From Tubiluchus corallicola (Eukaryota > Animalia > Priapulida), in contig JAQGDQ010000010.1 of NCBI GenBank assembly GCA_030141605.1, forward strand, positions 62,001 through 126,000: a DNA stretch of 64,000 nucleotides. The letters run 5' to 3'. The notes beneath the pieces were generated by a model. It saw only the letters and a program-made list of their open reading frames with translations. It was not told where the DNA came from and did not search any database. The stretch's first letter is position 1; each line of letters starts with the position of its first letter. This document shows positions 22,823-57,595 of the stretch, piece by piece. Made by a program: the position numbers and the translations under genes.

Positions 22823-23648
22823 GATGCAATCCAGTCTGCTCACATTGGTCTTGTTCACTGTTATAAACATATTAGGATGGTATTAATTATTAATTAATCT
22901 CTCTAAAATCCTGGTGTGTAGTGGGAGAGTAATGCGGGGTAACGGAGGTACCACATCTTTTAGATCTATGACGCAGTGTTAAAGGTGACCATTAGTTGTA
23001 AGACCTTAACCCACCTATATTTTTACCGCTCCACCTTTGCTAAAATCTACCAAGTACAATTTTACCTCGAATATCAACCGTCGTTAAATTGCTATTGCGT
23101 GTAGATGCAAAGTTTAAATAATTCATGACTAAAAATGCAATTTATTTGACAGAGCACCGGGAAAATGTTTGATCAGGTTTTTGCAAATTAAACACAAACT
23201 GGTCAACCTTGTTGATACAATAACTGTTATTTATTGTTGCAGCTGCCCGCTGGGATTGTGATTAATCAAATCGTCCTTGCAACTAAGGCAACAAAAATAA
23301 ATACCAGGAAGCGTCAACAGGCCTTCCTAATTAACTGCTCGTTACAAAACAACTACATGGCATTGAGTGAAAGGCTTCATTATTACACGACATTCGTGAA
23401 GCCACGTGAGTTTGAACGTATGAGGAAAAGTGGTTTACAAGACGCATATTAAAACTTCGTAATCTCGATTACAATTGGCAGAATTATTTATCGGATTACA
23501 TTTCAAGACAACGATAAGTAGAAGATGAGCACAGACATGGCTAATGTGGCAGTTGTAAGAATCTGTTTTATTTTTTAACGACTCAACAACGTCAACAAGT
23601 CTTAACATAACATAATGTGGAATAGCAGTGCTACGTAGCACCGAAAAT

Positions 23649-32683
<9,035 letters not shown>

Positions 32684-33607: not shown

Positions 33608-34341
33608 CAGTGGTTCCCAAAGTAGGGGTAAATTACCCCCCGGGGGTAATATGGTTTTTTTGGAGGGGTAACTGGCACCCCTCTGAAAATTTTTAAAACT
33701 TCGCTTGGAATGCATTTTACGTAGTTTTCTTCTTGAAGAGACTGCCTCCGGCAGGCAACACTGTGTCATGGGGTCCATCAAATTCCAGCAGCAGAACCTG
33801 GAAGAGTTCTGGATAGGAGAGATGGCCAGTTCACCAGTCCTTGCAGAACGGGCATTGAATATACTCACGTGTTTTTCAACAACGTATGTGTGTGAACAAG
33901 GTTTTTCGTCCATAATGAACATGAAAACAAAGAAAAGAAATAGGTTGGACGTGGAAAGTGATGCACGCGTTGCTTTGAGCCTGACGAAACCCAGGATTGA
34001 GAAACTGGCGTCCGAAAAACAGGCTCATCCGTCCGACTAACTGAGATTTTGTTGTTGTCACTCATTTCTTCTTGTTTTCGTTTGTTCGAGTAATAATTAC
34101 TCGAACGAACCTGCTCACTCAGTAATGAGCAGGTTCAGTAATTGTAATTCTTGTTTTGGCAACAATACAACAACACCTGGAAATTTATTTATGTCACGAG
34201 CAAACATAAATAATTTTGTTTGCTTGTGGCATATACGTGTGTTTACTTTTTGAGTTGGAGAAGTAGTACTAGGTGGGGGGTAATGGACACGACCGGGTTT
34301 CCCGATTTGGGTAACGGTCCGAGAAAGTTTGGGAACCACTG
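33608..34341 (+). mobile_element. Non-autonomous hAT (Charlie/Buster-type) DNA transposon, 734 bp, retaining the transposase C-terminal dimerisation region
   Basis: TIR cagtggttcccaaa (33608) and tttgggaaccactg (ends 34341). Perfect 8-bp TSD TTCTAAAG at 33600-33607 and 34342-34349. Internal ORF ...EFW...LAERALNILTCFSTTYVCEQGFS...KTKKRNRLDVE...QAHPSD*. Confidence 0.95.
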
Positions 34342-36218
34342 TTCTAAAGGTTAATTCTTGAAATCCAAAGATTGTTTGTTCGAATTCTGGACCAGTCTTA
34401 CTTCTTGCAAACTTCAGTTTTACATTTGTTTTAACCAAATTCCTTCAAAATCTTCAATAACTGGACATCCAAATGGAATGACTACCTTATAATTTCGATT
34501 ACCTTAAAGATGACACCAAATGTCTAGAAACCTTTTATACTTTCTGTTTGCAATAATATTACGGCTTTTATTTAGAGATATCAGTCATAAAACCACAATT
34601 TTTACAGTTTAATTTTAGCACAAAACAGCAACTTTATTTCAATTTAAATTAAAACGGAATTGAAATTCAAACATGTTAATATGATGATTGCCAGGCAGAT
34701 ACTGCCTGCAAAGAATGCCAAGAACTTATGAAACTTAGCTGTAAAATTATCAAAAAGGAAATAACATTAATAAAGCCAAATACGGAGAAAAAAACGAATG
34801 AGCTTTGCAAAATTTTCAGTAACTAAACTCAATACTGACTGTGAATTTTCTTAAGTAAGTTACACAATGAAGGACGAATATAACAAAATAAACAGGTATG
34901 CAAACAGGTAATGTAGCAGCCATAAGATATGCTAACACTCAAAAATGCCCTCTAATATGAATCTTACATTTCCTTTCTAATCTAACTTTTAGTTACCTGA
35001 TCTATACATTAAAAAAAAACTATTTGAGTTTCTTTTACACAGATAAGTGAAGCTTTTTAGTGCTTCAAATGAACTTAACACTTACAGCAGCATTCGCTAA
35101 ATTTGTACGAGACAATTATACATCACATCACTAGACTAAATTAAGCTTATGCACATAACTATGACTCTGAAAAATTACTGTTTAAGTTTCTGATATTAAA
35201 TGCTTAAATGCAGGAACTTATAAACTGAAATTATAATTAAACTTTTTAAAGCTTAAAAAATGAAATTTTCAATTATTGCTACAGACTTAACACTATTTTA
35301 CAAAATAAAAGAACTTCCAGGAATATAATACAATGAAATACACATATTACAGAAACTTGATGAAGTTGAACACAGAGTTGATTATCATATCGTTCTAAAC
35401 AGTCTGGTAAAGGATGTTTAGCGTATTCAGTATATGGTGTGGCTATATACACTTATCATCATTTAGCAGTCAAACAGAGATTATTTCAAAATGAAGTATG
35501 ATACAGCATAAAAGTACACATACACATCACATTTTCAATGCAAATAGACAGATTAGTACACGTCAACCAAGATGATGTTGTAATATTAAAAGTAAAAACA
35601 TGTAGTATCCATAAACACAACTAGCTAGCAGCTACGTACATTAAGTTATCAATTCGATCAACAAAGAATCAGATTAATTAACGTTACATCAACTTATATT
35701 TATCCATATGAAATTACATTATAGCCAAGGGTACATTTGGGTTCATTTACACAACTAAGTGTAAATGGGATTATGTACGTAAATGAAAACGTCAGACTTG
35801 CATGTCAAATGTCCTGACAACATATTCATTTTTGTAATGTATGAGCTATCAAATTTAATTATAACACAAGCAGATGTTTAGAAAAAGTCCTCTCAGACGG
35901 CCAACTGTCTGCCATAAAATTGCAATGTGGCTTCAAATGTGTATTTACATTAAATTTCAGTTAGCTATCTCACATTTACCAAAAACAGCAACAAGTGCTG
36001 GCAACTTACCAATATTGAGAGACATTCGCTGTTCTATACCAATGTGTTATTTGGTAATGCATGTAATGTGTTATGCTATCTCACTGATGGCTTTCCTGTA
36101 CACATAACATTCTATACATCACGTAGAAATTGCATTCTAATTAAATACCTGCTCCACCTCTTCCGCAATCAAAACTCTTACTTATCCTGGTATTTTAGCT
36201 CACTTTGATCGCTAAAGT

Positions 36219-39200
36219 TCATAATGTGAATTCAGACTCTGACAATTCCTCAAATAGATTTCGTTTAGAATTTGGAGAGCGTGAGTGTGAACTGGAGTCA
36301 GACATGGCTTGCTCTCTGACATGTTCAAGAGATTCAAAAGTACCCTCATCATCAGAACTACTTCTCCTACGTTCTATAGAAGCTCTTTCAGCATGGTGCT
36401 GTATCTGAGATGCCAACATTTCTAAACCTGCCCATTCTGATGTACGTTCCACTTTTTCTTCCTGTCGATCTGTTGCATTATTTTCAATCAAAACTTCATT
36501 CTTCTGCTCCTCTTCTTGTTGTATGCTTTGCCTTTGTTTCACTTCCTCCTTATGATTTTGATGTTCTATCATATGTTCAATTTCCTTCTTTTTCTCAAAG
36601 ACATGGCCTGTTTCTTCTATTGGTTCCAGATTTTGCCCTTTTTCTTCCTGTTGTTCAGTTTTTTCTATCATGTCCATTTCTTGTTTTAGCTTCAGCTGAG
36701 TTTCTTTTGCATGATGTACTTCCTTTTGTATTTCCTTTTCTTGCTCACCATCTCGTGTGACATCATCACTTTGTTTCACTTTGTCTCGTATCTCCTCTTG
36801 TGCTTCCTTAACTTCCTCCACTTTCTGTTGTCTTTCCAGTTTTTGTATGACTTCTTCCTGCAATTCTTCTGCACACTCCATTTTCATATCTACTTGTTCT
36901 TCTGTTTGTTCAATATATTGCTGTGATTTTTTTGCATGTTCTACTTTAATACTCACTTCCTGCTTTTCTTCAAGTTTTTGCTGCAAAAATTCCTCCTGCC
37001 TACTATTCTCTTCCTGTTTTCTTTCTACCTTCTGTTGTAATTCTACTCCTTGTTCTTTTTCCTCTATTCTTTGTTGTCTCTCATCCTGTGCCTTCTGCAC
37101 CCCTTCAGGTTGATTCTGCTCACCACTCGGCTCTAACGTTTTTTCTGGTGTTTGACACAGAGACTGAGCTGTGTATTTGACTTTTACTGTGGACAGAACA
37201 TCGACATTTTCACATGTTTCTTTTTCTAAGTCAGAGAAATTTGTTTTTTCAGGTGCGTCACTATTTGTTGTTGTAGTAAAAAATTCACTAGGGCTATGAT
37301 CAACTGGAGTTGATACAACTGACACAATCACATCTTCAGTATCAACCAGATCAGTGGTTCCAATAGGACCAACAGGTTTTTCCTTTTGACTACAGTTCAA
37401 GCAAATATAGTCTTCGTCTTCATTTAAATCATCTTCACTCAGTCCTACACAGTTGTAATGGAACCAAAGTTCACAACCTCCATCACATTGCACCCAATCA
37501 ACGGCTTCACCCATTGGTCGATAGCATGGGGTAGCTGCGCATATGTTATCTGGGTCATCGTCTTTATCATCATCTTTTGCAACTGGTTCGGATTTGACCT
37601 TTGCTAAAGCTTTCTCTTTGGTATTTGTCGGTGCCATTTTCATGGTTTTCAATTTCTTTCTTCCCACATCTTTTTTCTGTATTTTCTTCGCTTCATCTTT
37701 CAATTTTCGTTTGCGACCTCTGAGCTCAGAAGGTTCTAACTTGATTTTCTTTTTATTCTTTTCCTTTTCTACTTTTATTTCACTGGATGTTTCCTGGTCC
37801 ACAAACTCCATGTATTTTGGCTCTTCCTTTACCTTGCATGCTTGAAGGATCCTCCATATGTGTTGTGTCTCATCAAGTGAAACTTCTAGCAAATCACCTT
37901 CCATCATTAAGTCTTCAAGTTGAAGTCTTGCAGTTGAGGTCAACTCGAGGACTGGTGTTTCAAATTGACGTGGAACAATTGGTGACTTTCGGCTGTGCTT
38001 ACGAGGAGAAGAAGTAGACAAGGTTTTTGAAGCAGAAGAGTATGCATGCTCACCACCTCCAAATGAAGAAGGCTGGACATTACTTTGTACAGGTCCTGTA
38101 GTGAATGACTTTGTTCTAGGCTGAGATTCCGACTCGGGAAGGTGCATTTCAGATAGCAAAGGCGGAAAACATTCAGATTCCACCACAACTTCACCTGCGA
38201 CCGAGAAACCTATATTTGTATTCTGGTCAGTATCCCCACCAGCGCTGAAGGCATTTGGAGCTACAGTCGTCAGGTGACTCTGTAACTCTGGGTTATTAGC
38301 AGCCTTTTGTAATTCAGCAGTGATGATTTTTTCAGTTTTTTCTCTTGCTGCTTGTTCCACCATTTTTTGGCTAAGAACAGATAACTTAGCAAGAGCAGAT
38401 GCCAGCTCGCCTGTTGCAAGTGCCTGTCGGGCTCTATCTTGCCAACCCATTGCTCGCTCTGTAAGACATTGCAAAGCTTCTCCTTCAGGCAATCTTACTG
38501 GCAATTTCTGCAATGAGACTAGCAGGGACAAAATTGTTTCCAGCCTGGGTCTACGTGATGTTAAACAATGTGGACATAAAAATTTCAGATCTTTAATTGC
38601 CTGCATTGCAGCAGCAGCAGAAGTCTTATTTTTCGGCATTCCGGCTTTGGGCAGTGGCACGCAACTGCTATGAAACCAGTCCTCACAAAGTTCACACTGC
38701 AACATGAAGCCACTTCTTCGTTTTCTGCACACACAGTACTTGGCTTCACCCTTGTCTTCTAGTGCCTTTTTGCAATTCTTTTTTCTGTAGTTTCTCATGC
38801 TCTCTATTTCTGTAGTCTCAGCAGCTTTGTAAGCAGCAACTATTGCTGCTGGATCCCTAGTGTCTTCAACAGAAATATCCAAACTTCCAAAATGTTCAGT
38901 TTTTTCTTTTTCATCTCTCATTCTCCTTTTTTGTCGTTTACTATTAGTATCTACACCAATATCTGCCTTGGGAGAAAGAACATCAAGTAACGAATGTGAA
39001 GAATTCTTTTTTAGAAATGTTCTAGCAGTTCGTTCCCGCCAAGATTTTGCTGCTGCTACTTGACTTTCAATTTGTGGTAACTGATCAAGCCGAACAGGTA
39101 CTGAGCGCCCTTTGCTAACAAGACATTCTAGTACCTCAAGATATGGATAATGTTCGGAATTTTGGAGTAATTCAATCTTCAAAGACCAATCCTTGGCTTT

Positions 39201-41425
39201 TCTAACAGCATCTTTCAGAGTTGATATGTTAGGAAGGTAGACGGGTATGTCCTCAGACTCATGAATAATAGCTTCTATAGTAGTAAGGGCATGTCTTGGT
39301 TTTGCCTGCAAACAAATTTGTGCCTTTTCTTCCCAGCGTTCACTCATCATTAACAATCCTTGCAGTTCTCCAACAGTCTTCTCAATTAAAGGATGTGGCA
39401 TCATATTAACACCCATCTCAATGTACTTTTTTAAGTCATCTACCATAACATTACCTTTATCTGATAAGGTTGACTGTACTTTCTCTAGCCACTGTGCTTG
39501 CTGAACACACTGTTTTAATTGGGGTATCTCACCAAGATTGAGCTCAAAAGATTGCCCAAGTTCTAGCAATTCTTGAAGTTTGTCATGTTCTGGCATTTCA
39601 GTTGCAAGCATGTGCTTTACTTCTGCTTGAAAGTTTTTAACTCTGTTTAAGAAATCTTTAAGAAGATCTGTTTCAGGAATTCTGCATAACAGGACTGTCA
39701 TTTCTTCGTGCAGAAGTTGAAGTTCCTCAAGCGAAAGTTTGTCTAAAGGATGACCGGTTTCATCAACTTGTTTACTGCGTGTTCGTACTTTACGAGAAAT
39801 CAACTGCTGAACTGCATGTGCACATTTTTCTGCATCCGACACTCCAGACTTCAAAGCCATGATCAAGTTATTTTCTGGATACTGATTTTCAACTGCTTCA
39901 TCAAGTAATGCTTTCATTTTGGTAAGTTCAAGCTTATTCTCATTCTTAAGATGTAGGGCAGCTTTTGCTTTTAATATCCATCTATCAAATGGTTCTGATC
40001 GAGCCTTAATTTTACGCAACATTGAGGGCAGCTCATCCAATGTATATCGGTATTTCAATGAATAATTAGTTTTTACACAAGAACACAGTTTATCAACATG
40101 GTGTAAACACACAAGCTTGTCACTTTTACAAGTACATGCTACAGCTGACAGGAAGCATGTAGTCCTGCAGTGAGCACACTGTCTCTCGTCATCTGGCAGA
40201 AGCTCAAAAGCCTCACGCTCGGCTGAGAGTACTCCTTTTTCCAGTAGTTCTTTTCGAAGGCGCTTTTCTATTTCCACCATCTGCAACATATCTTGGAAAG
40301 TAGCAGAAGCGAGCTTTATATTAAGAGTCTCAGCCTCTAAAGCAAGCTTACAAATAAGTTCGTTGTGAGAAAACACATTAAATCTGTGATACAACTGGTA
40401 GCTATCTATAGCCATACGACCCCATTTGATCCAGTCAGCAGGGCATACATTAACTGCTTCAGCACAGTTATATCCTTGATTGAATCCTGCATGATAAGCA
40501 CGAGGAAACGTCACCACGAACTCACCGGCACGCTGATCTGTGCGCACGATTGGAACACCCTTTTTCATGAGGAGGTTTGGATGCATTATGGTCACCAGCT
40601 GATGAAGTAAATCAGGCTGAGACTCAAATAATTCTGGCACCTGATCTAACATTGCTTCTTCAAATATTTCAGCTTGAGGCCCTGGCACTCCGTACCATGT
40701 TTTTGGCTCACCCCAGTGAAGATAATTCACTGAATAGCTCCAATGATCTTCATTGTGCCAACAAAATGCAGCAAAGCACATGCCAACATACAACCAAGGT
40801 ACTTTCATTCCAGAAATATCTGCATTTATGTGTTTTAACACGGAACCATCTAACACAGACAGATTGTTCAAGTTCCAAGGTGAGAAACAGTATTCCACAT
40901 CATCAGGATAAAGATCATGGCAATCTTTTGTCGGAAAACCACTGCCCTTTTCCAATGCACTGATATCAGCCCCATATTCAACAGTTATGCTTTCATTAAT
41001 ATCCCGCGTGAGACGCCAAAATTCCTCCTCAGTTGTCTCACAAGGAACCAAATGCACTGGCATATTGAAGTATTCTGATTTGAATGTATCTGCCATTTCA
41101 CCAAATGATTGAAGGGAGTATGATTTTCCAGCATCAGGAAATCCAACTTCTCTTGGTGTGTCACACTCAGCAAGAATGCATCTGCAAAACATTATTTTTT
41201 TAGTAAAACACTATAATACATTTGTTTCCTTATTAATATGCTAAGTTAATCTACAAAGGTACAATTATCGGTTATGTCCAACAGACATTAATTCTAGACT
41301 AACTGAAAGTTTATGCTTAAATGGTTAACTGGATCAAATATTGCACTAGTGCTTCCTTACTTTTCATCACTCAAATATATATACATTTATATTATGTATT
41401 TATTTATTATGATATTATTTTTATA

Positions 41426-41476
<51 letters not shown>

Positions 41477-42928
41477 TAAATTTAACAACATTTGAATCAA
41501 TAAAAGGGCATTTTACAGTATTGTAAGTCTTGCAAATTTTAGCTTATAAGTTTAAAAACTGCTTATAATTATTCTTTAAGACACTACACTTACCACAACT
41601 GTGTTCTCGTCGGCAGCTTAAATGCTACCAACTTATGCAATATCGCTTTTCTAACCGCTTTTAGGTTTCTGGGAGCTTTTTGAGTATACTTTTGGCAATG
41701 GACATTTTTTGAATTGCAATAATATTCAACAACTTCCATTGACTTACATAATAACTATATAAAACAGATACAGTGAGTTGGATTTTAGGCTTTGAGATCA
41801 CCTTGTATGATCTAATTCATACATCTAATGGATGATATCAAAATTATTCATTTTCAGATAAAATGCAATCCAATGGAATGAAGCCTTTACAACTTCATAA
41901 ATGTGAGATTATGTGGGAAGAAGTATAGAATTTTTAATACTATTTCAGTCTGGCTACTTACACAAAGTAAAAACATAGTTAATAAAAATGGTATTTGTAA
42001 TAAACATATCAAACCTTGCGCATTTCCATTTGTTCATTGGAACAACCTCCAGTGGTGGAACTAGACAGTAAGTATGGTAACAATCATCACAGTTATCACA
42101 AAGTAATAAATGTTTATCATCTTCATGTCCCCGACATGTTTTGCATGCAAATCGATCAGGATGAGATACCGGCAATCGATTATCAAAGCTCGTCAGAAGA
42201 TTAAGATCAAGCTCAGATGGCTCACTACTAAGAATAGCTGCTTTGGGACCGGGGCCAAAGAACTGAAGTCGCTTTAGCTCCCGGTTGGCGGAATAGTCTA
42301 CTTTTACATCATCTTCCAAGTTACGAACAGCACGCTTAACTCTTCGAGCAAACACGGCATCAAGCTTTTTAGTTTCTGGTGATGCAGGTTTCGAATTCTT
42401 TGGAGATGTCGCTTCTCCTTCTGCTGTCATATCGAATGGATATAAGATTTTCTCGTAATGGTGCCGCAAAGTGGTAGCCACACCCCTGGAAGGCGTGTAG
42501 CCCATTCGACTTGCCACACAATGCCACTTCTTCTCAGACGTGATCTTCTCTAAGCCGCCAATTTCTTTTACGCATTTATGGAGTTTATACAAATCCAGGA
42601 CCTTTCCTTCCACTGTGGGAAGAGTCAAGGGCAATCCTTGCAGATCCCAGAATTTGGCAATTTTGTCCAGAAAATTCATCTTAACACGTGAAGTTGCCTC
42701 CAGTTCATTTAGTCTTTGAATTCGTGGAGTAAACCTGAACTTATCCACATCAATAACAAATGGTGGCTGCCAATCAGGAGGCGGAATAATCTTACAAATT
42801 CCACACTGCTCCGCCTCAGGACGAACCTTCTCTAGAAATGCTAGAGGATCTCTCCACTCCTCCTTGTCTGGGTGATACACTGGACATTCTGGCGGTGGTA
42901 TGAAAGGTAGTGCCTCTTCATCAGCCAT
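36219..42928 (-). CDS. KDM5: Lysine-specific H3K4 demethylase KDM5/JARID1/lid, about 1958 aa, only 2 coding exons (42928-42015 and 41181-36219)
   Basis: JmjN (PPECPVYHPDKEEWRDPL), ARID (LDLYKLH...KKW..VA), PHD1 spanning the phase-2 intron (CAR/CIL), JmjC with Fe ligands CWHNEDH and AYHAG, C5HC2 finger, PLU-1 region, PHD2 and PHD3 (WVQCDGGCELWFH). ATG context aacATGg. Confidence 0.96.
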
Positions 42929-42989
42929 GTTAAGTTTCAGATACCACTGTCTCACTTTAAACCATTTATACCTCTAATCAGAATACGTT

Positions 42990-45646
42990 CTATCCCCTGG
43001 CAGACTTGAGTACTTTCTAGAAATAAAATATGAATTAATATTAGTAATTAAAGAAGGCTGAAAGCTTCTTTGGTTCAAGTTTACACATTAAATACTTTAT
43101 TATATTAAATGCAACCTATATTCATGAAAAAGTTATTTCAAGTGTTGCATTAAAAAATAATGCTGCCACAAATATCTGAAATATAAGGATATTAATGTCT
43201 CATTTTTCAACAAAGTTCACATGCTATCAGATAATTAAACATTTTATCATCACAGTATGTAATGTATAATGTGTAATGTATATATGTAATGTAATTATAC
43301 AAAAATGTTATTCTTTCCTAATGTTGCTAAGCTACCTTGAGTACTTAAAATTGACAATGAGCGTAAGAGTTCATTGTTAGAATTAGTAATGGATTTAAAG
43401 AGATTCAATGTACGTTTGGCAATGTATCTTTGTGGGATAGGTGTCGGCAAACCATGCAGTCATAACACACTGACAATTCCTTGAAATTTGACGAACGCAG
43501 TGTGAAATTTGTCTATATTCCATTGCAAGTACACAAACAATGTCAGTTAAATAAAATGTTGATCTACCATAGAAAGACATACAACATGAATATTACAATT
43601 TCAATAAAACATGCTTAGTAGTATCAGATTTCAAAAAAAGCATAAAAGTGAAATAGCAGATGTAATAAAGGCGCTTTTGCAACGTACAAGATCTACTGCT
43701 TGATCATAGAAGACGACATGCCCTAAGTGCCATTTTAATACTATTCTATTAATTTCAGTATGAGGTACATTAGTATGTTTGCTTTTTTCTGAATAGTACA
43801 CATTTAGTCTTTTCTGTATCGAACAGCATGTCATTTTCAATGGCAAACTTGTCGCATATTTTTAATAATCTTTTCAATGCATTTACAGATGAGCAAGCAG
43901 AGTTAAGTAATCTGCATAACTAAATGCACTAAGGAAAAACATAGTCTGTTATTTTTTAGTTTGAGTAACTACTGTGAACAAAATTCCCGAAAGCATGCTG
44001 CCTTGTCTTATGTTGTTGGTTGCTGTAAATTCAAAAGATTTAGAGTCATTCTAATTATTCTACACATATTTAAATGTTAACGTAAGTGTTCAGCATCAGC
44101 ACAAGCACAGTTTCAGCTAATTAACATTGCGTTTCCAGCTTTGAGAACAGAATAATGATATTAATGCGATTGAAAACCTCGGAAAAATAAATTAGGCAGT
44201 CATAGACAGTTTACATATGTTCAAGTAAACAAGGCATAACCATTTAATGCAACTTACTGCCAATTACAAGTAAGTACTTTGCAAGTTACAAAAAATTAAA
44301 AAAAATACCAAAATACTGGGCTCTTAATTTAGTAGTTGCCTATAATTGTTTTCTAGAATGCAAAGTATTTAGTTTACACATTTAGGTAGCAGTAAGTGTT
44401 TTTTAAAACTGCATAATTGAGATTAGACATTCCAAGTCAATTTCACTGAAAACTAGTGGTTTCTTTAGTCTAAACAATATTTAAATAAATGCAAGAGCTA
44501 AATAGGTAGCAGCAAAACTATTATGTTACTGCCAAAGTAAAAAAGTACTAATACTTACATGGCTATTAAAGATACATACAGAAGTATACATGTAAACAAC
44601 ATCATAAATACATATAACAAAGTACCATAGGGCACTAACTTAACTACATCAAATCATGATTGTTGCGATGTGACCAGAACCTATACCTTACCTTGCAAAT
44701 CATACTGCTGTTGTGTAAGCAAATTACATTTATGCAGCTGAAACAAAACTCACAATTTAGTGACAAATTAATGAATTACAAATTTACTTCCTAAGCTCTA
44801 CTGTTAGCAACACTTGTCTTCTTTAATTTGTCATATTACTATACATCCCTAAAAAATCAATTTTAACATTGTATAATAATTAATGACAATACAATGCATA
44901 GAAAGAGTTTGTAAAAAACCAGCTCACCTTCCGAATTGCTTCAATGTGTGCAGATGTGATGGTATTATCTTTTAACCCTTGAGCGTATTCATTTGCAGCT
45001 AAAGCAATTTGCCGTAAGAAAAGCATGTGGTTCAAAAAAACCTGAAAAAGAAAAGCCAAGTTGTTTATCATATTTAAAAGCTTATGCAAATATTTGTATT
45101 GTAGTTAAACCCACCGTTATAAGGTTAGAGTAAGATAGAATGAAAAAAAACGGATAATAGAAAATTTTATCAGTGCATGAAAGATGACTGTTCAATTTTT
45201 CAGTTTTGGCAGAAATTAGATTTGATGTACAATCTTGGCTATCAACTGTGATGGCCATTTTCAAGGTTAAATGGGGTTGAGTTTTTCAGTTGTGTTCAAC
45301 ATTATTACATTGACGATTAATAAATTATAAAAGCTCAAAGGACAATAATATTGTCAAAGGACGATAATATGTGCAAATGAAAATAAATTGCGTAAATAAT
45401 TTCCACCGTACGTAGCAGACACTGTTTAAATATGTTAAAATAGCAACAACGACATTGCTAGTGTTATTAGCCATGATCATATCTAATGAAAATAGGTTTG
45501 GCCGATTCAATCTGCCATCTGCATCACGCAACCTATTAGTACTTGAGTAGACTTACTAGCAGTTCGCAATTAGTTGTCCACTTAGCTTTCCTGCAGTTTT
45601 GTCTCAAAGTTTTGCGTAGTTTTCCCTTAGAAAAAGTTCGCTTCAT
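42990..45646 (-). CDS. CENPW: Centromere protein W (histone fold), 76 aa, 3 coding exons (45646-45557, 45041-44928, 43016-42990)
   Basis: Spliced product MKRTFSKGKLRKTLRQNCRKAKWTTNCELL/VFLNHMLFLRQIALAANEYAQGLKDNTITSAHIEAIRK/KVLKSARG*. Both introns are phase 0 GT-AG. Resembles CENP-W as I recall it (KR..P.G.L..., DLLVHLNCLLF..RLA, I..EH.., KVILKKSRG*). Confidence 0.88.
43400..44080 (-). mobile_element. Degraded non-LTR retrotransposon RT remnant in CENP-W intron 2
   Basis: Minus-strand fragments EFTATNNIRQGSMLSGILFTV (cf. GVRQG..LSP.LF) and AFSYADYLTLLA (cf. YADD). Confidence 0.6.
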
Positions 45647-48345
45647 GATGATTACAATATTAGATACTCAGGGACGTAGTTTATGATACTAAACATTAGC
45701 TGAAATTAATCAGAGAATGCACACACCACAAAAAAATCATAAATTTAACGTGCACATTAAATTCGTGTAATTCAGTCTTGAAGTGCGTGAAGTTAAGACA
45801 GTGGTGCACGTAAATATTCTTTGGTGAGCCAGAGAGCGAGTTGCGTCACTAGATATTTTCCACGACCGCAGCAGCACAGTACCAGTCCAGAAGAGCAAAT
45901 TTACTAAATCACTACTACCAGTGAAGTAAATTTTGAGAATCTAATTGAGTCAGAAGATCCACAGACAGCAAAGTAGTTGCTGGAATATGTTCCAATAGCA
46001 ATGAAAGTAAGATAGAGAAGAGGTGGCGAGCTGGAAATCTAGCCAAAATAATAATGGCTATAAATGGATTACAAGAGTTAAAGCTGATTATATTACTTGT
46101 GTCTCACACAATGACTTTCATTTGTGCCTATCTGACCAGATAAAGTAAACAAACAACACAGCTATGCTGAATGAATCATTGTGAACACCGAGGCACTGAC
46201 GACCACTGCCCAAGCCGAGCTGGGACTAGTGAATACTGAATGTACCATAGAACTGTGATTCTTAAACAGCTAGAAGCCTTCCAGTAGACGAATTTCAAAT
46301 GAGAGGGAAGGAATTTTAGTTAGGGTAGTCAAGAAGAAACGTTTAGGCAAAATAATACGAGTTTTATGATCTAATAAAACAAGTTTTTTATTCTTTCACT
46401 CAATTAGAAAACAAAATTTAATTTCCTAAATATCATTATCTTAATGATTGTCATTTTAATAGCATAATGTGAAAAAATTAGTAAATAACAATTACTCAAA
46501 ATAACGGATGGAGGAGAGGAAACCAAGAAGAATGCAGAGTGGGAGTCTACCTTACCATTGGCCTACAGATTACAGAAATCAAACGTGGAAGCCCTGGCAA
46601 TGCGTCACTGGAGTTATTCAGATTAGATCTGCAAATTGGACTGTATTTGCCAATGTAAGTCAATATCAGAATTTGTTGACATAATACTAATTAAAGATTC
46701 AAGGAATAGTAGATGCATATGGGCATACTCTTGTTTGAGCTCTGACATTGATGCTGCAAATTACTAATTTTCTATTAATGGCTGGTAGGATGGATTACCT
46801 ATTATTGATGTCATTGTTGATTCGAAGAGTCTGAACAGGTTGCCCATAATTATTAAAACAGACTCAATTATAATTAGTTATTGGCACGCAAGTTCGGCGC
46901 AAATGACAAAAATTGACAATGTAATAATACGGACAAAGCTTGGTCAACTTTATCATAATAGCATGGTCAACTAAGTACATTTTTATAAAATAAGTAAGTA
47001 AACAACTAAGCAGAATAAATCTTTATTGTAATCGCAAAGAACACAAACACATGGAAAACATTTCCTAAACTTCTAGAACACCACCGGAGTAAAACAGTAA
47101 AAAGACAGCAAAGTTCAGTAATTAGTTAATAGATTTTAAGACTGTTGTTGTTGTAGCATGGCATTTTTAACTAAAAATAAAATCTGCTTCTATTATACCA
47201 AATAATAAAAGTGATAATTTGACAGCTTTAGTTGCAAAACATTAAACTCACAGTAAAGTGTACTTAAACAATATCCAAAATGTATTAGATGAATGTTAAA
47301 GGTGTCTTATGTTATTTTACCAGCTTTTAAATGTATTGAAAAGGGTCAAAGCTACAAGACCAAGTTGTACTCGGGAAGCTATGTTCCATTTAACTACCTC
47401 CTGCAGTTAAAAGGAAAGTAAGATGTTGAAGACTCTCACCAGGCTTGAGAGACTCCTGCAACAGCTATCAGGAATAAAAATGTACCAGCATGCACACAGT
47501 CTCTTTCTCACAGAGTATTTGTATCACTGCTGAATATAATGGTAATATCATATTTATACCCATAAAATATACATTTACAATCTAATACATTTTGATATTA
47601 CAGCAACATTATATACACATACATATTACGTTACGGTTACGTTACGACAACGTTACGTTATAACGGCATCGTTAATGTTACCATAAACACAAATATCGCA
47701 CTACATTTTTATAAATTTTAAGGAGATTAACAACTAGAAACAAAAACTATTAGACACTATTCATCACATAAGATGCTTTGGTACAGTAGTACATAACTCT
47801 TACAAATATGACAAGATACACTAATGCAAGCAACTTTTGGCAGACTCGTTATGAGACATGCATATTAAACATGCTACTAATATAGGAAAATTATAAAAAA
47901 TTCTGCTCTTAAAATTATTGGAATATCAAAATCAATAGTAAAATGTTATTACTATAACATTCAGATCTATTACAATTTACAAATACCAACATATATGCCA
48001 GCAACACTAGCATTAAACTAACTTCTAATAAATGAAACTAATAGTGTACTAAACACACAATATTTCATCTAATTTCATTGCAAGTACAGGCATCATTTTA
48101 AAAAGATAAGCTATGCATTAATTATTACAATCTGCTTTTGCACCTAAGGTTTTTGACTACAAATAATGATCTAGTCCAACTATTGGTTCTCACAAATGTT
48201 TCGTTTTTTTCACTATTGGCTTGGAAACTTAGAGTTAGACAGGCTTGTCATCGGATCATTCCATGAGATGCACCTTAAATTTCAAAAGAACATGTAATAT
48301 AGACAAAACTACACATAACAGGATTCTATTTATAAAATGAAGATG

Positions 48346-48381: not shown

Positions 48382-48640
48382 TTTATTTTGTATATTGTTT
48401 AAATCTATGCAGACAGACAAATAGCTTCATATCCAAAGACGCTTCACAAAAAGTATCTAAAATCGTTAAAAAATTATAAAACTAAGTACATAAAATGCAC
48501 AGATTCATAAAATTTGACAAATAGTTTTATTACCCTGAAAGACTGCATGCCGTTTTAAATAAGTGCGTTTTAATCTGTATTTTAAAAGCACTAATGCTCG
48601 GAAGTCTTAATCACGAATGTAATCAGGTGTCTCACCATGA
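48347..48640 (-). mobile_element. 3' end of an L2/CR1-group LINE with an (ATT)n tail
   Basis: Minus strand reads PDYIRD...SISAFKIQIKTHLF (cf. FK..LKTHLF terminus), then a short UTR, AATAAA and (ATT)n at 48347-48381. Confidence 0.6.
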
Positions 48641-49369
48641 ACCTCCTTAAATACAAGTAGTTGTAGAGCTTCAATCATAACAGTCATTAGGAACTGGACT
48701 ATCACAAAATGGTGCCACAAAACTAAGTTATTAAAAGCACCTACTAGACTATTTAAATTCTGGAAATCCATGACGGCTTGTGTATAGGTATTGTGGAACT
48801 GTAGCACCCTCTATTTTCACTCAATATTATCGATAATATTCAATATAATAAGTCTTTTTTTAGTTCTTTCTTTATACTTGCACGAAACCAGAGCACGTGA
48901 GGGTAGTACTCTTTGCTTCACAGCACAGCATAGTGCGCTCACAGCTCCAGCAAAGTGGTGTTGCGCACAAGTCTGAGATAAGACGCTGTGAGCTGCACTG
49001 CTAATGTCTGCTGCAAGGTAGAGAAAGTGCTGTCGCTCACGCAGTGTTTGTTGTCAGTTGTCATGTGCTTAAAAACCGTGTACCGGGCATATTCTTGAAC
49101 TGCGTCAATTTAGGCCATTCGTAAGTAAAAAATATTTTTTTGTTTAGGATTTTATCAAGTTTACGTATAAATTTTCACATGCTTGTTTGTTTAAAATTAC
49201 AAATGACAACATTAAAGCTACATCTGTTCGTTTCGTTTTACACAGTATTATAACAATGGCTAAAAATTAGTAGGCTAACAAGTAGCACCCCCCTCCCCCA
49301 ATTTTAGCTATGAGCTTTCACTGCTGGAAATATAGATATTAATAGTTAACTACCTGACAACACTAGAAT

Positions 49370-52300
49370 TTATATGCCATACATGACTTTCGTGTTTTTT
49401 CTACTGGCTGCTATAACTTCATCGATGGTATCTTCACGCAACTCTGCAATTTCGGCAGCAGTATGAATGGCCATCCCAGGATGTGACCATCTAGTTAGCT
49501 TATCAACCTGAAGAAAATCGCAGTAATTTATTTAACCGAATCAAAAATTTAACAAACTTGTCTCATCTTATTAGTCTTTTTATTACTTTGTAAAGCGATG
49601 AAACATTTTGGGCAAGGTGGTCAAATAGCAGTTCATTAAGGTGTCCACTTAACAGTACTAAAAATATGTAGTGTAATACCTGTTCGATTACTCCATGGGA
49701 CATAGAATGCTATTAGAAAGATGACAAGATATCAGAAAAAACAGTAAAAAGAGAATGGATTGAAAAGTGAAATTCTGGCAAACGTAATCACTTATAACAG
49801 AAGTCATAGCTGTGAAAGAAATTTTACCCTTGCTGGTAGAAAATACGGCGCATCGGTTTCGATGAGCAATCGATCAAGTGGCAATTCTTTCACGACATGA
49901 CGTACACTGGTGGCACTGTAATATGTCACCACAGGTGTGATCCCAATAAATAGATTTGGAAACGCTTCCATCCATTCCTGAGCTTCATTCCAATCACCGG
50001 TGAAGCAATGGCGATGGATTTTTGTGTCAGTAGGAACAATCTAAGAAGGTAAAAAACAAAAGGCTCTTTACATCTCAGGAAAAAACAAATACACAAGGCA
50101 GAAAAAGATCATAAAGGTCTGTTTAACATTTTACTTTACACCGATTTTTTAGATTCAAACATGAAGCGCAGAAAATAACTAAGAGCCGAGTTCACAAACA
50201 TGAAGCACAGAAAATAACTAAGAGCCGAGTTCACACCTAATATCTAAAGGTAAGCAATGCCAAATCAGGTCACTAAATGAATGGGTGACAACTAAAATAC
50301 TGACTATTTTGATACTGACTATGGATGGTTTCATATTTAGATATATACAAGACCACATGTAGTCAAGTGGAAAACTACCTTTGTTGGTTTTGTAGAGTTT
50401 ATTAGATTACAATAAGACAGGTCTGGTCCTGCCACAACAACCCACATAAAGTAGGTCCTGCAAGCAAAAATTGGTGGGACTTCAGAGCAAGATGTTACAC
50501 TTCAAGGCTATAGTTAATTGTTTACAATTTCTTGATCTCTTGAGAAATTATAATTCTCGTTTCATCTTGACTGTGACTAAAATTCCCAACAGGAAAAGTT
50601 CATGCCCTGTCACTCTTCTATTTGCTTATTTAACTGAATTGTAAATATTACAAAAATCTGTTTGCTTAGCTACTACTTCCACCACCAAATTGGAGTTCTA
50701 CTCACGGTTGAAGCATGCACACTTTATTTAATACTTTCATCATCTTATTATTTGAATTTGTTTCATTGCATTTCTACTGCAATTATTGGTTTTGTTTTGA
50801 CTATCGTGAAAAATACATTTTTTGTCTCATCATGCAGAATAAATACTTTGAATTTTTAGACTGTTAATTATTAGACTACCAAATGCAAAAGACATTTTCA
50901 CCTTGCAATTGTTGTTGGATTTGACCTTGATCACATGACTCACTTTAACGATAGAAATAAAAAATAAGTTAAGCTTCTTAATGTTTAAATTTGGAAAGAA
51001 CCATGCACAACATCTCAAAATGCACAGTAAGGCAGCTGGAAAATTAGTCCTAGCATCTCTCTTACCTCCTTCAAGATTCGCAGACAGTCTTCAGATGCCA
51101 TTCTGCAGTGTATAATAATCGGCAGCTCGTGTTCCAGGGCTACGATAAGTTGACTTCTGAAAACTTTAACTTGAGTTGTCTTATCACAGTTATTTCTAAA
51201 AGACAAATTAAAAGGCAATAAATTATCAGTTCAATACAGAAAATGACACTGATAAAGTGAAACTCGACAGTGTTTTCTTTTAACAAGGCAACAATACTAC
51301 CAACCTTCTATGATGTGATATTTATGTGACAAATAAGTTCCTTAATATTCTACCTAGCTGCTAGAAAAGTATTTACAAATAAAAAGTTATCACAATAACA
51401 GACATGCTATTAACTTTTGTCAGGCCTCATTAACTGGTGCTTAAGAGAATGCACATAAGACAAAGTAGCACCAGGGTGTACTGCAAAAAGTCTTAATACA
51501 GAGTGCTACAAAATGAGATAATAAGATCACAGTCTTAACCATGCAGTGATCATGGTTAAATGCACTTATTTTGTCTGCACTTTCTCCAACTCATTTAGTT
51601 TTCTTGAGCTTACCTGTTTGAATAATCAAGGCCAATTTCACCTAAAGCCACTACGCGAGGATGCTGCAATGCCTCCTTCAATGCCTTTTCTGCCTCAACT
51701 GAGTAATTGGAGGCATGGTGCGGATGACACCCAAATGCTCCCCAAACACTATGGTCCTAAAAATATAAACAAACGAATCATAAACTTGACACCGTTAATT
51801 CTACAAATTTAAATTGTGATTGCTGTCGAAACTTCATTTAAATAAGGTACTAAAAATGACACTTCTGGATAAAAATTTACTGGACTAAAATGTCATCAAG
51901 TTTCTAGACATGCCAAGAAAAAAGGAAAATGTTGTTTCAAGATCGGATTACCTCAGTGAGTACTATTTCTAATTCAGTGCCTTAATCTGATCAAGCCTTC
52001 ATTTAATATTCATTACTAAATAAGTATGCAGAAACAAAATTTGGTTGTGTACTATGGATAGTCTTGCAATTACGATTTTTAAGATCACTGTAATGTAAGA
52101 GATTCATATAGCTAATCTAATGTTCATCCCAATATGGTGCATGTTGGTTGGGATACTTTAGCCTTGAATAAAAATTTGGCAAGTTGTAGCTATGAGTTTG
52201 GCTATTCCAATCTGGTAGCACTTTTGAGTGAGATGGCTCTGATGGCTCTAGCATAGGCAGGCAGTGATCAAAATTTGTAGTTTAATATAATTTGATTGAT

Positions 52301-55300
52301 CAAAATATATTGTGATGTAATTGTATGTGTGCTTTCACAACAAAAACATCCATAAGTCAATAGATAGTCACAAATCTTGAATCTTCACTTCATGAGGATC
52401 ATTTTGATAGCAAGTTTAGTGCTCTATGTTACTTCTAAGCTGGGATAATCCATGTTGAAGTTGAGGTACACGTTGCACACTGAAAACATAACCTTGAAAA
52501 AATCGCTGTTAAAGTTTGCCGTCGTTTTTTGTTGCATTTCTACAAAAACGCTTAGCGACCATACAGAAGTGTGGCTGCTATATAATTTGCAAGGGTACAC
52601 TAATGTTATGTTTAAATCCAATAGATGGTTGTCCCAGATGAAGATTTGGGCTTGGCAATAGAAAAAACACAAACAATGCAATTACTACGAAGAGCTACTA
52701 TCAGAATTCAAAAATACTAGGTTTTTAAAATTCCAGTACTAGCTTTTAGACAAAGAAGTGGGCAAGGGGTTACAAAATTAAATTTCTGAATTTTCTGAAT
52801 GTTTCCTGATGATTTGATACTAGAATATAAATGTCCAACATATTTACAATTTGTTTTTATACAAAAACAAAAAATTGACATTTGGCCCAATTTTAGGTGC
52901 ATCCTACTTTGAAGCATCATAGCGTAGTTTTAACTATGCCCACTTATGGATAGTTTGCAAGGATATATATTTAACAGACTAACATGAGAGCTGTTAGTTT
53001 ACACGATTGTTGTATAGCAAACTTACATCTAAGTGCTGTGCCCACATTTGTCTGTTTTTGAAGGTTAACGGGTCACAGAAGACTGTGACACACCCTTCGT
53101 AATTTTTCGGAAAAGTGGAGCGATTATTATTCTTAAATGTTTGAAAATTTGAGCATCCAATCCTAAAATGAAATGTATGCAGTTAAGATGAGCAATAATA
53201 ATAATAGTATATTATTTATTAAATAAGGTACCCCACATTTGCAACAATGCACACAATTAAGTGTAGCTTTTCGTTTCTTTTTTATACAAAGCTTTCAGTC
53301 AAGACAAGCCACCACTCAAAGACAGCATTAAGCAATACTGTCACATTTTTTACGCTTATTACTTGCTCATTGCAAAATAAGACATTACTATTTGGCAATA
53401 AATTTACAACTTGAAGCAACTAGCAAGCAACTTGAAGTTTTACTGAAAATTGTTTTTGAAATTTCTAAATTTTTAAATACATCTAATAAAACAGATGCAA
53501 TTTATTTAATCAATAATACATAAAAGTAAATCATAAACTGTTTCCTAAACACTAAACAAACCTGTTCATCAAAAAGTCAATATGGCAGTGGCTATCGATA
53601 AATGGTTCCTTGCACTGTAAACTAAACATGTTTGTTACTTGTCCATTAGTAACACTTCCGGTAGAGTAACGCCGTTGACCATATGGTGACCGACTTTCTT
53701 GGTACCCATTATACGCCCTGTTCAAATTAAGACGATGAGGCTTGCCTGATGGTTGGTAGTCACTACGGATGCTCAAATCCAAATGTTCTAAAGGGGCTTC
53801 TGATGATCTGCTACAAAAAGAACTCTTTCTGCTGGTTGTTCCTCTTGGAAACTGAACTGGACTATTGGACGTCACTACATGACAGCTGCGGCTATTCTGC
53901 ATTAATGGAAGATTTCTTCTTTGCAGCTTAACATGGTTTCTATGAGTATTCTTTTCCACTGTTTCCAAGCTGACATTAGATGATGAACAAAATGAACCAT
54001 TTTGATCTTGTCTTGGAGCAGCCAGATAACTGCTAGCAAATTTGGCTGCCTGTGCATTTGATGTCACATTTTGATGAAATGTATCATTCTTTGAAGAGAT
54101 GCTTAACCTTCTCCTTGGAGAGCTTCGGTGCAGACAGTTTTTTTGAGGGCTGGGGTAGAATGAACCATCTGATCGACTTACCGCCACATAATGATTGCTG
54201 GGAGAAATAAATGAACACGCAGTTGGTGTAACGTCTTTAAATTCGTTACTCATTTGTGGAGGGCAACTTCTATAGGGATACCAGTAGTTTGTCTGAGGGG
54301 TATTTTCAAAAAAGTCAAAGCTAGCATTACTCTTCAAGTATGATGGATCATTATAGGAATGTTGTGGTGTGGTTGAGTAAGTGTGAGGCGATGCACCTGG
54401 AGCGATATATGAAGTACAACTGGTAACACTTCCAGGAGTATTTCTTTCCGATTCCGTATTACTACTATTCATAAAATATGATGAATTGTTATTTGGGTCA
54501 CTGGATGATGCTCTACTTGAACTACCAGGTACAACAGGATAACCACCTTCAGAAAACCCAGGTGGCAGCCATCTAGGTGATGGACATAACTGCATGTCAG
54601 TCTGAATAAAATGCTGCCATGCTAATTGAGTAACACTATAGTCAGACTCCTTTCCAGAATTCAGAAAACTTTCTTGAAATTGGTACTCTCTAGACATATT
54701 TTCTAGGTTGTGAGTATAATCGACCCCCATGTCCAGGGTAGAATTCACAGAATTAAGATAGTTGGAGTTTCCTGAAGAGGCTTTTGGATAGGCATCGACC
54801 GACAATTCTTCACTTTCTTCTCCCATTTTTATTAAATACATGTTTTTAAACACTTCATCTGGATTGGGTTGATATGAAGCAGGGAAGCCCGGGGGAGTTT
54901 TGACATTTGTAGGAGCTGTATCTCCAAATGCCGGATTACTAACTACTGTCACTTGATCTAAGTCAGACTTGACTGTACGATGCATAGGACCATCAGGAAG
55001 AGGAATTTGCTTTATGTCTACTTCAGTTGGGAAAACAGCAGTAATATAATTGCTTGCATCAGCAGGGCTGCCAACTTGATGAGCAGATACTTGACTGTTT
55101 ATCACACCAGTGTTACTGATTGCATTAACACTGCTATGGTTATTGGTATTTTTTTGAGCAGCTGTTTGTTCAACACTTATCACTACAGTGTCACTAAATG
55201 TTTTAGAACCACTATTTTTATTGAAATGTTCACCTCTTTGGTCATTGTTCACTGTGTACTGTTCGTCAATAACAAGATCAGACTGTTGATTATGTGAGTG

Positions 55301-56518
55301 CATGTTGATTACTGCCTCATCAGGGCTCCTTTTTAGAGGTTTACTATCATTGAGGTTTGTATCCTTTCGATATACACCATTTGCAGATTTACTGGAAGTA
55401 TGCTTGTTCTTACCAACATCTGGCAAGGGTATACTAAGAGGGTCTTGAACAAAGTCGTGATGTGCATACATTGCTTTGTTCAACAACCTGTCCCTTTCTT
55501 TTGTAACAAATGTGCGGGCAATATCAGACTTTTTCCTTGCTTTATCACTGTTGAACTTGGAACACTCCAAATTCAAACCTTCTGCAGATGTTTTGTGAAA
55601 ATCAGAACGATATTTCAGTATCTGTGCCTTTACATCAATACCAGGAGGAGATGCACAAAAAAGGGCAGGCTTGTAGACATGTTTTGCCAGGACGTCACTT
55701 TGTGCATTTTCACTCTCTTCCAACTTTTCTGGCGACTGCTGCTGGGAAACAAGCTCAGTGTCTGTTTCGCTATCCGCTTCTGCATCTATCTCATAAGGTA
55801 CAAGAGGTGGCTGCTTATCCACTCTATCACTATTATTAACCACCTCGTTCCTAGAAAAACTATTTTTCCGCTGTACTACGCAAACTGATTCGACACTGTT
55901 GCTCCTACTGCTCATTGCAGCAGGCTTCCCATTCACTGTGCCACTATCACCACATCTGACATTAGAAAGCAAAGAAGGTGTGAAAGCATTAGCTACAGAC
56001 AATGACTGTTTACTTTCTTTGTGACTGCCAATTTCAAAAGAATCACCTATTAAGTCTAAATTTCTTAGCAAGTTGCTCTTGCTTTGAAAACGAGATACAC
56101 GTTGTGGCTGCGAGTGTTGCTTTTTAGTTTTCTGGCTAGTCTGCTGCCGACAATCTTCATCCCAATCTTCTTCAGCATCTTTATCGACAGGAACCTTATG
56201 AGGTAGACGATGAATATCTTGATCATTTTTATTTGCTACAATGTCTGCAGATTGGTTTTCACAGTCCAAGTCTAAATGGGAGTTTGCACTTATTGATTTC
56301 TCAGTGGCAGCTGCTGCCATGTCATACCTAAGTTTTTTAGATGAAACAACGTCTAAGTGTACATTATTCTTAGTGTCATTCAAACTAGCAAATTCTTCAG
56401 AACGTTTGCGACTTTGGCTCGACCGCTTCTGATGGTGTAGCTTTACCAATGCTGGTTTTGTTGTCATAGATTTGCAGTTAATTACATTGTGAGTTTTGTG
56501 TTCCAGACGCTTTATCAT
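49370..56518 (-). CDS. TATDN2: TatD-family nuclease TATDN2 with a long low-complexity N-terminus, about 1238 aa, 6 coding exons (56518-53562, 53162-53027, 51756-51614, 51195-51066, 50040-49828, 49507-49370)
   Basis: Phase-consistent GT-AG splicing gives FIDSHCHIDF, FPKNYEGCVTVFCDP, VWGAFGCHPH, ALGEIGLDYS, PIIIHCR, KIHRHCFTG, LLIETDAPYFLP and SHPGMAIHT. The FCDP and WGAFGCHPH motifs plus the long N-terminal extension point to TATDN2 rather than TATDN1 or TATDN3. Confidence 0.92.
50156..50233. repeat. Tandem duplication, 2 copies of 39 bp, intronic
   Basis: caaacatgaagc(g/a)cagaaaataactaagagccgagttca occurs twice with one mismatch. Confidence 0.9.
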
Positions 56519-57105
56519 ATTTATTAAATCTCAATGCTTATTATGAGGTTTTGTTAACATTTGCGCATCTGAAAAGGTAATATGGAAATTGTTAAAAGGT
56601 GTAACCTGCTGTTTGCTTAAAAATATGACCTGAGTGCAGTTAATTTATCCAGTCTCAAAATTTAAATAAAATAACTTACAATTGTATAGATAGAACATTT
56701 GCAATCAGGTTTGAATTTACCATTTAGTTATTATAGATATGTTCATAAATATTTAATAGAATTGTAAACCTAAGTACGAAGCTCGGCTGTAAATGCAAGT
56801 AGACAACTATAGGAGTGGAAAACAAAATTTAATGAGGCAGCTATTGCAAACAAATGATTATGTAGAACAGGCACTAAAGCTTGCACTAAGAATACACTTA
56901 GATCTGTCAGAAAGTTAAACTACAAGTTCTGTCATGTTTGCATTACATAACATTTTACAACAATATCTTTTCACAAAATTAAAGAAGTGATTAAGCTATT
57001 GATCCAGTGAATTCATAGCCATTAGTATATAAATGTTAATGCACAAGAAAACCCTACATAAAAATAAAGCTTAAAAAATTTGTCTTGAAATTTTATACCA
57101 CTTAC

Positions 57106-57200
57106 ATACTGCCTTTTTGCATGCAGGACTTCAGTCGGCAGCCACGCTGTATAAAACATGTAAATTTAAGTGCGATGACCACCATTAGACGCAGCCATTT
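57106..57200 (-). other. Probable 5' UTR exon of TATDN2 containing upstream ATGs
   Basis: GTAAGT donor at 57105-57100, ttttcag acceptor at 56569 (50 nt before the main ATG), and an AAAATGGC motif near 57195. Confidence 0.5.
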
Positions 57201-57547
57201 TCACGACAGGTCATTTGAAAGAAGTTTAGATAACACTGCGTGAAGTTTGAAAAAATGATCATAGATTTCGTAGCACATACGTCAGTAGCTAAAATTTCAA
57301 ATTACCGTATCTTGTCAATAAGATTAAGAATACGCTTTTAGTTAGCGAGTGATGCACCCTGGAGGGTGAGTCAGCGACATTTTACAAATTATTGAAAACA
57401 TTTTAAATAACTAAAAATTTTCTTTTCTAGTTAAATAAATCTTTCTAGCAGGTAAGCGAAAAGCTAAGTAATATAAATTTGCATGGAAAGTTTTTTTGGG
57501 ACATAATTTACCATTACCTTTTCTTTCCGATTTACGTTGTGCGTAGA

Positions 57548-57595
57548 TGACGTCATGTTTTGGCGCCATCGGAACAGTATGGCGGGAGATTTAAA
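57548..57595 (+). promoter_or_regulatory. Promoter motif cluster: CRE, E2F-like site and CDE/CHR-like tandem element
   Basis: TGACGTCA at 57548-57555, TTTTGGCGCCA at 57558-57568, and GGCGG-GAGA-TTTAAA at 57581-57595, about 350 bp upstream of the inferred TATDN2 first exon. Confidence 0.5.

Follow-up and report, generated by a model that had tools for sequence, protein, structure and literature searches.

A CENP-W-like gene and KDM5 in tandem in Tubiluchus corallicola: a probable dicistronic transcription unit

Do a small CENP-W-like gene and the KDM5 gene that begins 61 nucleotides (nt) after its stop codon share a single mRNA, and, if so, how would the second protein be made? The question is raised by a 64,000-nt stretch of contig JAQGDQ010000010.1 of Tubiluchus corallicola (here the window, meaning the whole stretch analysed, within which all positions are given). 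The exons, stop codon, start codon, spacer, and micro-upstream open reading frame (uORF) that a first-pass annotation had placed at this locus are all present in the sequence at the positions it gave. On sequence evidence, we consider it probable, at roughly 55%, that the tandem is expressed as a dicistronic mRNA from the CENP-W promoter, in an arrangement that looks restricted to one lineage.

The two genes and the spacer between them

KDM5 is complete and encodes 1958 amino acids (aa) in two exons on the minus strand: coding exon 1 (42015–42928) specifies JmjN, ARID, and PHD1, and coding exon 2 (36219–41181) specifies JmjC, the C5HC2 finger, PLU-1, PHD2, PHD3, and an acidic tail. The domain set JmjN-ARID-PHD-JmjC-C5HC2-PLU-1 plus two more PHD, all above the Pfam cut-offs, is the full set of the KDM5/JARID1/Lid family, and the protein is 52–56% identical to invertebrate KDM5; it differs from the family in having one intron at a non-ancestral place and a long, acidic, low-complexity tail. 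The only intron (41182–42014, minus strand; 833 nt) falls in phase 2 in codon 305, with weak splice sites by splice scores and a non-ancestral position by comparison of loci. The tail after PHD3 is rich in Glu, Gln, and Lys (36222–37200, minus strand) and is followed by a short stretch alignable with Priapulus. A candidate poly(A) signal, ATTAAA at 35854–35859 (minus strand), may serve the KDM5 transcript and any shared one.

The KDM5 start codon, ATG at 42928, stands in the context AAC ATG G. Most of the 120 homologues compared (the best 120 of 1400 KDM5 matches) start a few residues ahead of the same JmjN motif, indicating by comparison that ATG 42928 is the true KDM5 start; none of these 120 carries a CENP-W-like or histone-fold N-terminal extension or is a fused CENP-W–KDM5 model. 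In a FastTree phylogeny of 35 rows, from which loci L009 and L006 were omitted together with the remaining loci and proteins, the window KDM5 and that of Priapulus caudatus form a pair (local support 100%) whose branches are long. Compared by BLAST over the conserved core, Priapulus and insect KDM5 score within 1–2 bits of each other. In the P. caudatus model P0001 (XP_014675758.1), the first ~445 residues occur twice, as if two tandem copies, one partial and one fuller, had been fused, or the assembly contained a duplication.

The CENP-W-like gene, also on the minus strand, has a 76-codon open reading frame (ORF) in three exons with both introns in phase 0. Specifically, the coding part of exon 1 (45557–45646) supplies 30 codons with a basic N-terminus; intron 1 (45042–45556; 515 nt) is a GT-AG intron with donor GTAAGT; exon 2 (44928–45041) supplies 38 codons predicted to form histone-fold helices and is followed by donor GTGAGC; the predicted intron 2 (43017–44927; 1911 nt), assigned from splice signals, ends in the acceptor ...TATTTTATTTCTAG; and exon 3, from 43016, supplies eight codons and the TAG at 42992–42990 (coding part 42990–43016) and would be the 5′ end of an exon shared with KDM5. 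With a rough acceptor score trained on seven local introns, the acceptor at 43017 scores 3.4, joint best among the 19 AGs in 43300–42929; an alternative good acceptor at 43176 would give a different, hydrophobic CENP-W tail.

Of the two introns, only intron 1 has read support; the sequence predicts intron 2 as well as the shared exon. Run X2, presumed to be RNA from a relative ~92% alike in KDM5, contains a 288-nt contig (contig 9) that covers exon 1 and splices it to exon 2, skipping exactly 515 nt (joint 45042/45558, with the cut one base off). The contig ends 42 nt short of the end of exon 2 and extends 5′ to ~45745; its loose 5′ end is genome-like at ~45745–45716 and bears no foreign leader. 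Eighteen of its 31 differences from the genome are listed: 12 lie in the leader, together with two insertions, and all six in coding sequence are silent (5/5 in exon 1), compared with ~22% expected for random coding changes when mutation bias is ignored. Because intron 1 is spliced and the six listed coding differences are silent in the relative, the ORF looks like a live gene. The X2 contig depths (39 for CENP-W, 35–70 for the listed KDM5 pieces) entered no ranking of the two genes.

CENP-W is the best family call for the 76-aa peptide, and a likely one, judged by exon layout and histone-fold matches. In Pfam, exon 2 matches CBFD_NFYB_HMF (E 0.037) and Histone (E 0.093), both under the cut-off, in keeping with the single histone fold of CENP-W. 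In the Atlas (recognition 3181), the 10 best named matches of exon 2 all belong to the histone clan, and the CENP-W cluster ranks 14 of 30 with a score of 0.79; all scores are below 0.9 and are leads only. The length (76 aa, against ~75–90 aa in CENP-W), the basic N-terminus, the three exons, and the conserved first intron are likewise those of CENP-W, and the C-terminal LKSxRG end is one that we take to resemble that of vertebrate CENP-W. Queried singly, exons 1 and 2 fall short of the CENP-W profile, with no match to PF15510, and single-exon queries found no CENP-W homologue in the PDB, in a word search of protein collections, or, for exon 1, in the Atlas. The sole match among 1.84 billion representatives, a repetitive fish coiled-coil protein, was rejected as a summed-repeat artefact.

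The closest comparison is with zebrafish cug2/CENP-W, which has three exons, 75 residues, and a conserved N-terminal localisation signal (PMC3171718). An exon-1 donor morpholino and a stop at residue 31 in the same source imply that its first intron is in phase 0 after ~28 codons, before a valine. The gene in the window is alike in its three exons, its 76 residues, its basic N-terminus, and its phase-0 first intron before a valine, with 46 residues after the intron versus 47 in cug2; it differs in its neighbourhood, in that vertebrate CENP-W/CUG2 lies beside TRMT11 and RSPO3 (PMC3171718), and the gene here lies beside KDM5.

The spacer (42929–42989, minus strand; 61 nt) offsets the two frames by 1 and contains a TAG in the KDM5 frame (42976–42974), the hexamer TATAAA (42970–42965), and a two-codon micro-ORF, ATG GTT TAA (42965–42957). 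Stop-codon readthrough from CENP-W into KDM5 is rejected, since the frames differ and the KDM5 frame is closed by the TAG, as the first-pass annotation had already pointed out. The same annotation had noted that the spacer has no AATAAA. The hexamer is indeed not found in the 61 nt, but it is infrequent in controls as well (8% of shuffled sequences; 4.5% of 831 non-coding 61-mers from the neighbourhood), so that its absence is expected, and the TATAAA had been overlooked. One of the top four poly(A) hexamers occurs in 17–28% of control 61-mers; the TATAAA is thus at chance level and proves nothing either way.

One transcription unit or two

The proposal that one mRNA carries both ORFs stands as the best reading, with no sequence joining the genes and with indirect support from three sources: the CpG profile, a LINE-like segment in intron 2, and a retrocopy-like KDM5. 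A CpG-rich, promoter-like region at the CENP-W 5′ end (45350–45950, minus strand), which the X2 contig enters as far as ~45745, would be the shared promoter. Its CpG observed/expected ratio (o/e) of 0.95 is at the 98th percentile of 448 windows in 35–58 kb, compared with 0.35 around the KDM5 ATG (19 versus 7 CpG, binomial p 0.019; p 0.033 with 900-nt windows), the windows of this comparison having been picked after the profile had been seen. The o/e upstream of TATDN2, at a putative start site, is 0.91. The gene bodies of the window have little CpG (o/e ~0.4), as expected under gene-body methylation; Priapulus, the nearest row to the window KDM5 in the tree, is predicted to have DNA methylation (PMC8821070).

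Intron 2 has a CpG o/e of 0.38, and ~780 of its 1911 nt (~40%; ~44080–43300, minus strand) translate to broken reverse-transcriptase-like motifs, with no Pfam match in this segment. From these motifs, we take the segment to be a fragment of a decayed long interspersed nuclear element (LINE). It lies on the same strand as the genes, and an AATAAA stands at 43101, shortly ahead of the exon-3 acceptor.

KDM5 itself shows the loss of ancestral introns that marks a retrogene. In particular, it has one intron in 1958 codons, versus 22 coding pieces in locus L042, one of 80 related KDM5 loci that we collected from metagenome contigs, none of them known to be priapulan. An alignment break at residues 49–54, present in 54 of the 80 loci, is absent from the window KDM5; its sole intron sits 13 nt from an intron position common to L042 and L069; and the neighbouring TATDN2 and CENP-W genes keep their introns. 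KDM5 is likely, on this comparison, to be a retrocopy in the CENP-W 3′ untranslated region (UTR) with a captured promoter, an addition of the present analysis. A processed KDM5 copy would have inserted into the CENP-W 3′ UTR and, since a processed copy in a foreign 3′ UTR needs a borrowed promoter, would have taken over that of CENP-W, gaining one intron later. Such an origin would make the pairing an accident and not a designed centromere circuit.

A single transcription unit would thus run from the CENP-W promoter to an mRNA end after KDM5. Splicing of intron 2 to 43016 would place the last eight CENP-W codons, the spacer, and the first 305 KDM5 codons in one exon, and the spacer TATAAA may yield a short CENP-W-only isoform. 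The predicted leader contains six AUGs ahead of the KDM5 AUG, which (A at −3, G at +4) has the best context of the seven. Two weak AUGs lie upstream of the CENP-W start, one of them GTG in the relative; after the CENP-W start come one in-frame AUG, a six-codon out-of-frame ORF whose end is 132 nt ahead of KDM5, and the two-codon ORF, whose end is 28 nt ahead of KDM5, these last three AUGs having a pyrimidine at −3.

The first-pass annotation had KDM5 translated by reinitiation or leaky scanning. Reinitiation declines with uORF length, and typical uORFs have 10–30 codons (PMC10275272), which favours leaky scanning past the CENP-W start; ribosomes reinitiating after the mini-ORF would add to the KDM5 output, as in the algal bicistrons of PMC11892635, and reinitiation after the full 76 codons would probably be minor. 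Initiation would mostly occur at the CENP-W AUG; some ribosomes would leak past it and past the three AUGs that have a pyrimidine at −3 to the KDM5 AUG, and others would translate the six-codon mini-ORF and reinitiate at the KDM5 AUG.

Several observations weigh against a shared mRNA from a captured promoter. The spacer TATAAA is followed by a CA 16 nt later and by a GU-rich run, and may be a usable poly(A) site with a variant signal, or a TATA box. The 3′ two-thirds of KDM5 exon 1 has a CpG o/e of 0.67, versus 0.42 in exon 2 (p 0.017), a rise that could come from a KDM5 promoter close by. Ribosomes would meet the CENP-W AUG in a good context (A at −3, A at +4), the stretch between the two starts shows no depletion of AUGs (3 observed, 4.5 expected, p 0.25), and the length of the CENP-W ORF counts against reinitiation, as noted. 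Other intron-poor KDM5 loci exist (L010, L022, and L023), and they leave the retrocopy origin unproven; the list of differences in the relative's contig covers 18 of 31. Finally, of the joins predicted by the first-pass annotation, 45557/45041 is seen in the X2 contig, whereas no contig in X1 or X2 bridges exons 2 and 3 (44928/43016) or continues from exon 3 past 42928 into KDM5; the interval 42796–43265 is uncovered, which proves nothing, as contigs cannot show absence. Run X1, of unclear kind, served neither for nor against any reading: it has no splice joint at any gene intron, a contig of it spans the last TATDN2 intron, and it reaches a depth of 90 only over 35890–38566.

The alternative that survives best, possible at well under even odds, is that of two overlapping genes transcribed separately, with the exon at 43016 shared and KDM5 driven by a promoter in intron 2 or by the spacer TATAAA acting as a TATA box; CENP-W would end at this TATAAA or read through, with KDM5 as a long 3′ UTR. 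The TATAAA at 42970 with its downstream CA and GU-rich run, the 1.9 kb of intron space, the raised CpG in KDM5 exon 1, and the second good acceptor at 43176 would all suit such an arrangement, as would the expectation that KDM5 output is reduced by a uORF of 76 codons whose start is good. Moreover, 114 of the 159 Drosophila dicistronic loci also yield a monocistronic form, and exon-sharing genes are common there (PMC4528330). However, the 490 nt before the KDM5 ATG contain no CpG-rich patch, and, unlike at the two other promoter-like regions, a scan for CRE, YY1, E2F, and E-box motifs gave no match there; CHR-type hexamers alone were found there, and these are present in all three regions. In addition, intron 2 is partly LINE-like, the TATAAA is at chance level, and a TATA box at 42970 would, at the usual spacing, give a leader of ~10 nt.

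An operon resolved by spliced-leader (SL) trans-splicing, also raised by the first-pass annotation, is improbable. In such an operon, cleavage of the precursor would fall within the spacer or close to it, and a spliced leader would be added to KDM5 at 43016 or at a spacer AG; the very short gap would be in keeping with this, as would the fact that the CA belonging to the putative poly(A) site coincides with the AG at 42948–42947. The spacer AGs, however, score −3.0 to −6.1, versus 3.4 for 43017, and have poor pyrimidine tracts, and at the 5′ end the relative's CENP-W contig follows genomic sequence and lacks a foreign leader, both of which speak against the proposal; there is no notable Rfam match in 41–50 kb, and priapulan trans-splicing was not found in the literature by title or abstract. 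The least probable alternative is splicing of exon 2 to the AG at 42974 or 42947, both of which give an open in-frame join to KDM5 and so a histone-fold–KDM5 chimera or KDM5 start with a precedent in Su(var)3-9/eIF2gamma (PMC4528330), because these acceptors are poor (−3.0 and −3.6), KDM5 has its own well-placed ATG, and 0/120 homologues carry the extension. A three-gene operon including TATDN2 was set aside as unlikely: TATDN2 has its stop at 49371 and AATAAA at 48531 and 48387, 2.7 kb before CENP-W.

Other features in the window

The TATDN2-like gene (49371–56530, minus strand) encodes a C-terminal TatD domain (Pfam) in several small exons, preceded by one low-complexity exon of ~990 codons without a Pfam match; a spliced relative, P0122, is 93–96% identical, and no Priapulus TATDN2 is present among 47 matches. 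Its promoter-like region, at ~57000–57700, is a CpG-rich patch with CRE, E2F, and YY1-like motifs. The 3′ region of TATDN2 contains a short interspersed repeat (48774–49268), which is matched by >1000 divergent X1 contigs and is also present in the relative in X2, and a second, low-copy repeat (45923–46066), matched by several divergent X1 contigs, lies ~200–300 nt upstream of the putative CENP-W start site.

On the plus strand, small proteins that are rich in Gly and Tyr and look secreted are encoded in a cluster (677–955, 1927–3352, and 6837–8563); some carry acidic tracts of Glu and Asp, none has a good Pfam match, and they presumably resemble cuticle proteins. A multi-exon DEG/ENaC (amiloride-sensitive channel) gene with Pfam ASC occupies 23600–29100, and a hAT transposase dimerisation-domain fragment (33687–34037) lies downstream of KDM5.

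Conservation and comparison with known systems

Among the 80 related KDM5 loci, 49 include the KDM5 start, 35 with >300 nt and 12 with >2.7 kb upstream. No CENP-W-like ORF was found in the 80 loci, the 49 with a KDM5 start included (best E 2.3); in simulated detection at 30% identity, a spliced copy was recovered in 20/20 trials and exon 2 alone in 8/20, so that split genomic CENP-W copies could be missed. The pairing looks lineage-restricted on this sample. A further step, which we hold doubtful, would be that across the whole lineage, likely priapulans, CENP-W survives only as a translated uORF of a retroposed KDM5. If so, an H3K4 demethylase would be driven by a kinetochore-gene promoter and dosed by leaky scanning, and annotation would hide CENP-W in the KDM5 leader and so mimic CENP-W loss.

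If the tandem is expressed as a dicistronic mRNA, two genes of deep conservation would be joined in one animal mRNA beyond the insects, the group with the best catalogue of such pairs, and a large chromatin-enzyme gene would have survived retroposition by means of a small gene's promoter. The locus also flags a short kinetochore gene of a kind that gene callers can miss, which bears on claims of CENP-W loss. The earlier suggestion that the arrangement couples kinetochore assembly to H3K4 demethylation found nothing here to support it, though centromere assembly and this demethylation may be linked in their regulation.

Dicistronic pairs as a kind are already well known and common in Drosophila, with 159 loci in FlyBase 6.04 (PMC4528330); the CENP-W/KDM5 pair itself was not found in print, no prior description appearing in the literature by title or abstract, a search outside which most subscription journals lie. 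The pair resembles the Drosophila pairs (PMC4528330) in comprising two unrelated conserved ORFs with the small one first, and its 61-nt gap is inside the stop-to-start range of −34 to 319 nt at the Drosophila loci that make only polycistronic mRNA. Optional monocistronic forms, known in Drosophila and predicted here, are a further likeness. The pair differs in that the Drosophila pairs were established from cDNA, RNA-seq, and transcription start site data and the joined mRNA here is predicted.

With the green-algal leaky-scanning bicistrons (PMC11892635), the pair has in common a short first ORF, a stronger start at the second ORF, and weak internal AUGs. The algal bicistrons have weak first-ORF starts, few internal AUGs, and conserved loci, whereas here the first ORF has an A at −3, AUGs show no depletion, and no conservation was seen. 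The insect Su(var)3-9/eIF-2gamma locus (PMC4528330) is alike in that a gene for a chromatin modifier seems to have entered a housekeeping gene, whose promoter it uses. The insect proteins have a common start codon and 80 residues in common and are separated by alternative splicing, whereas CENP-W and KDM5 are separate ORFs in tandem.

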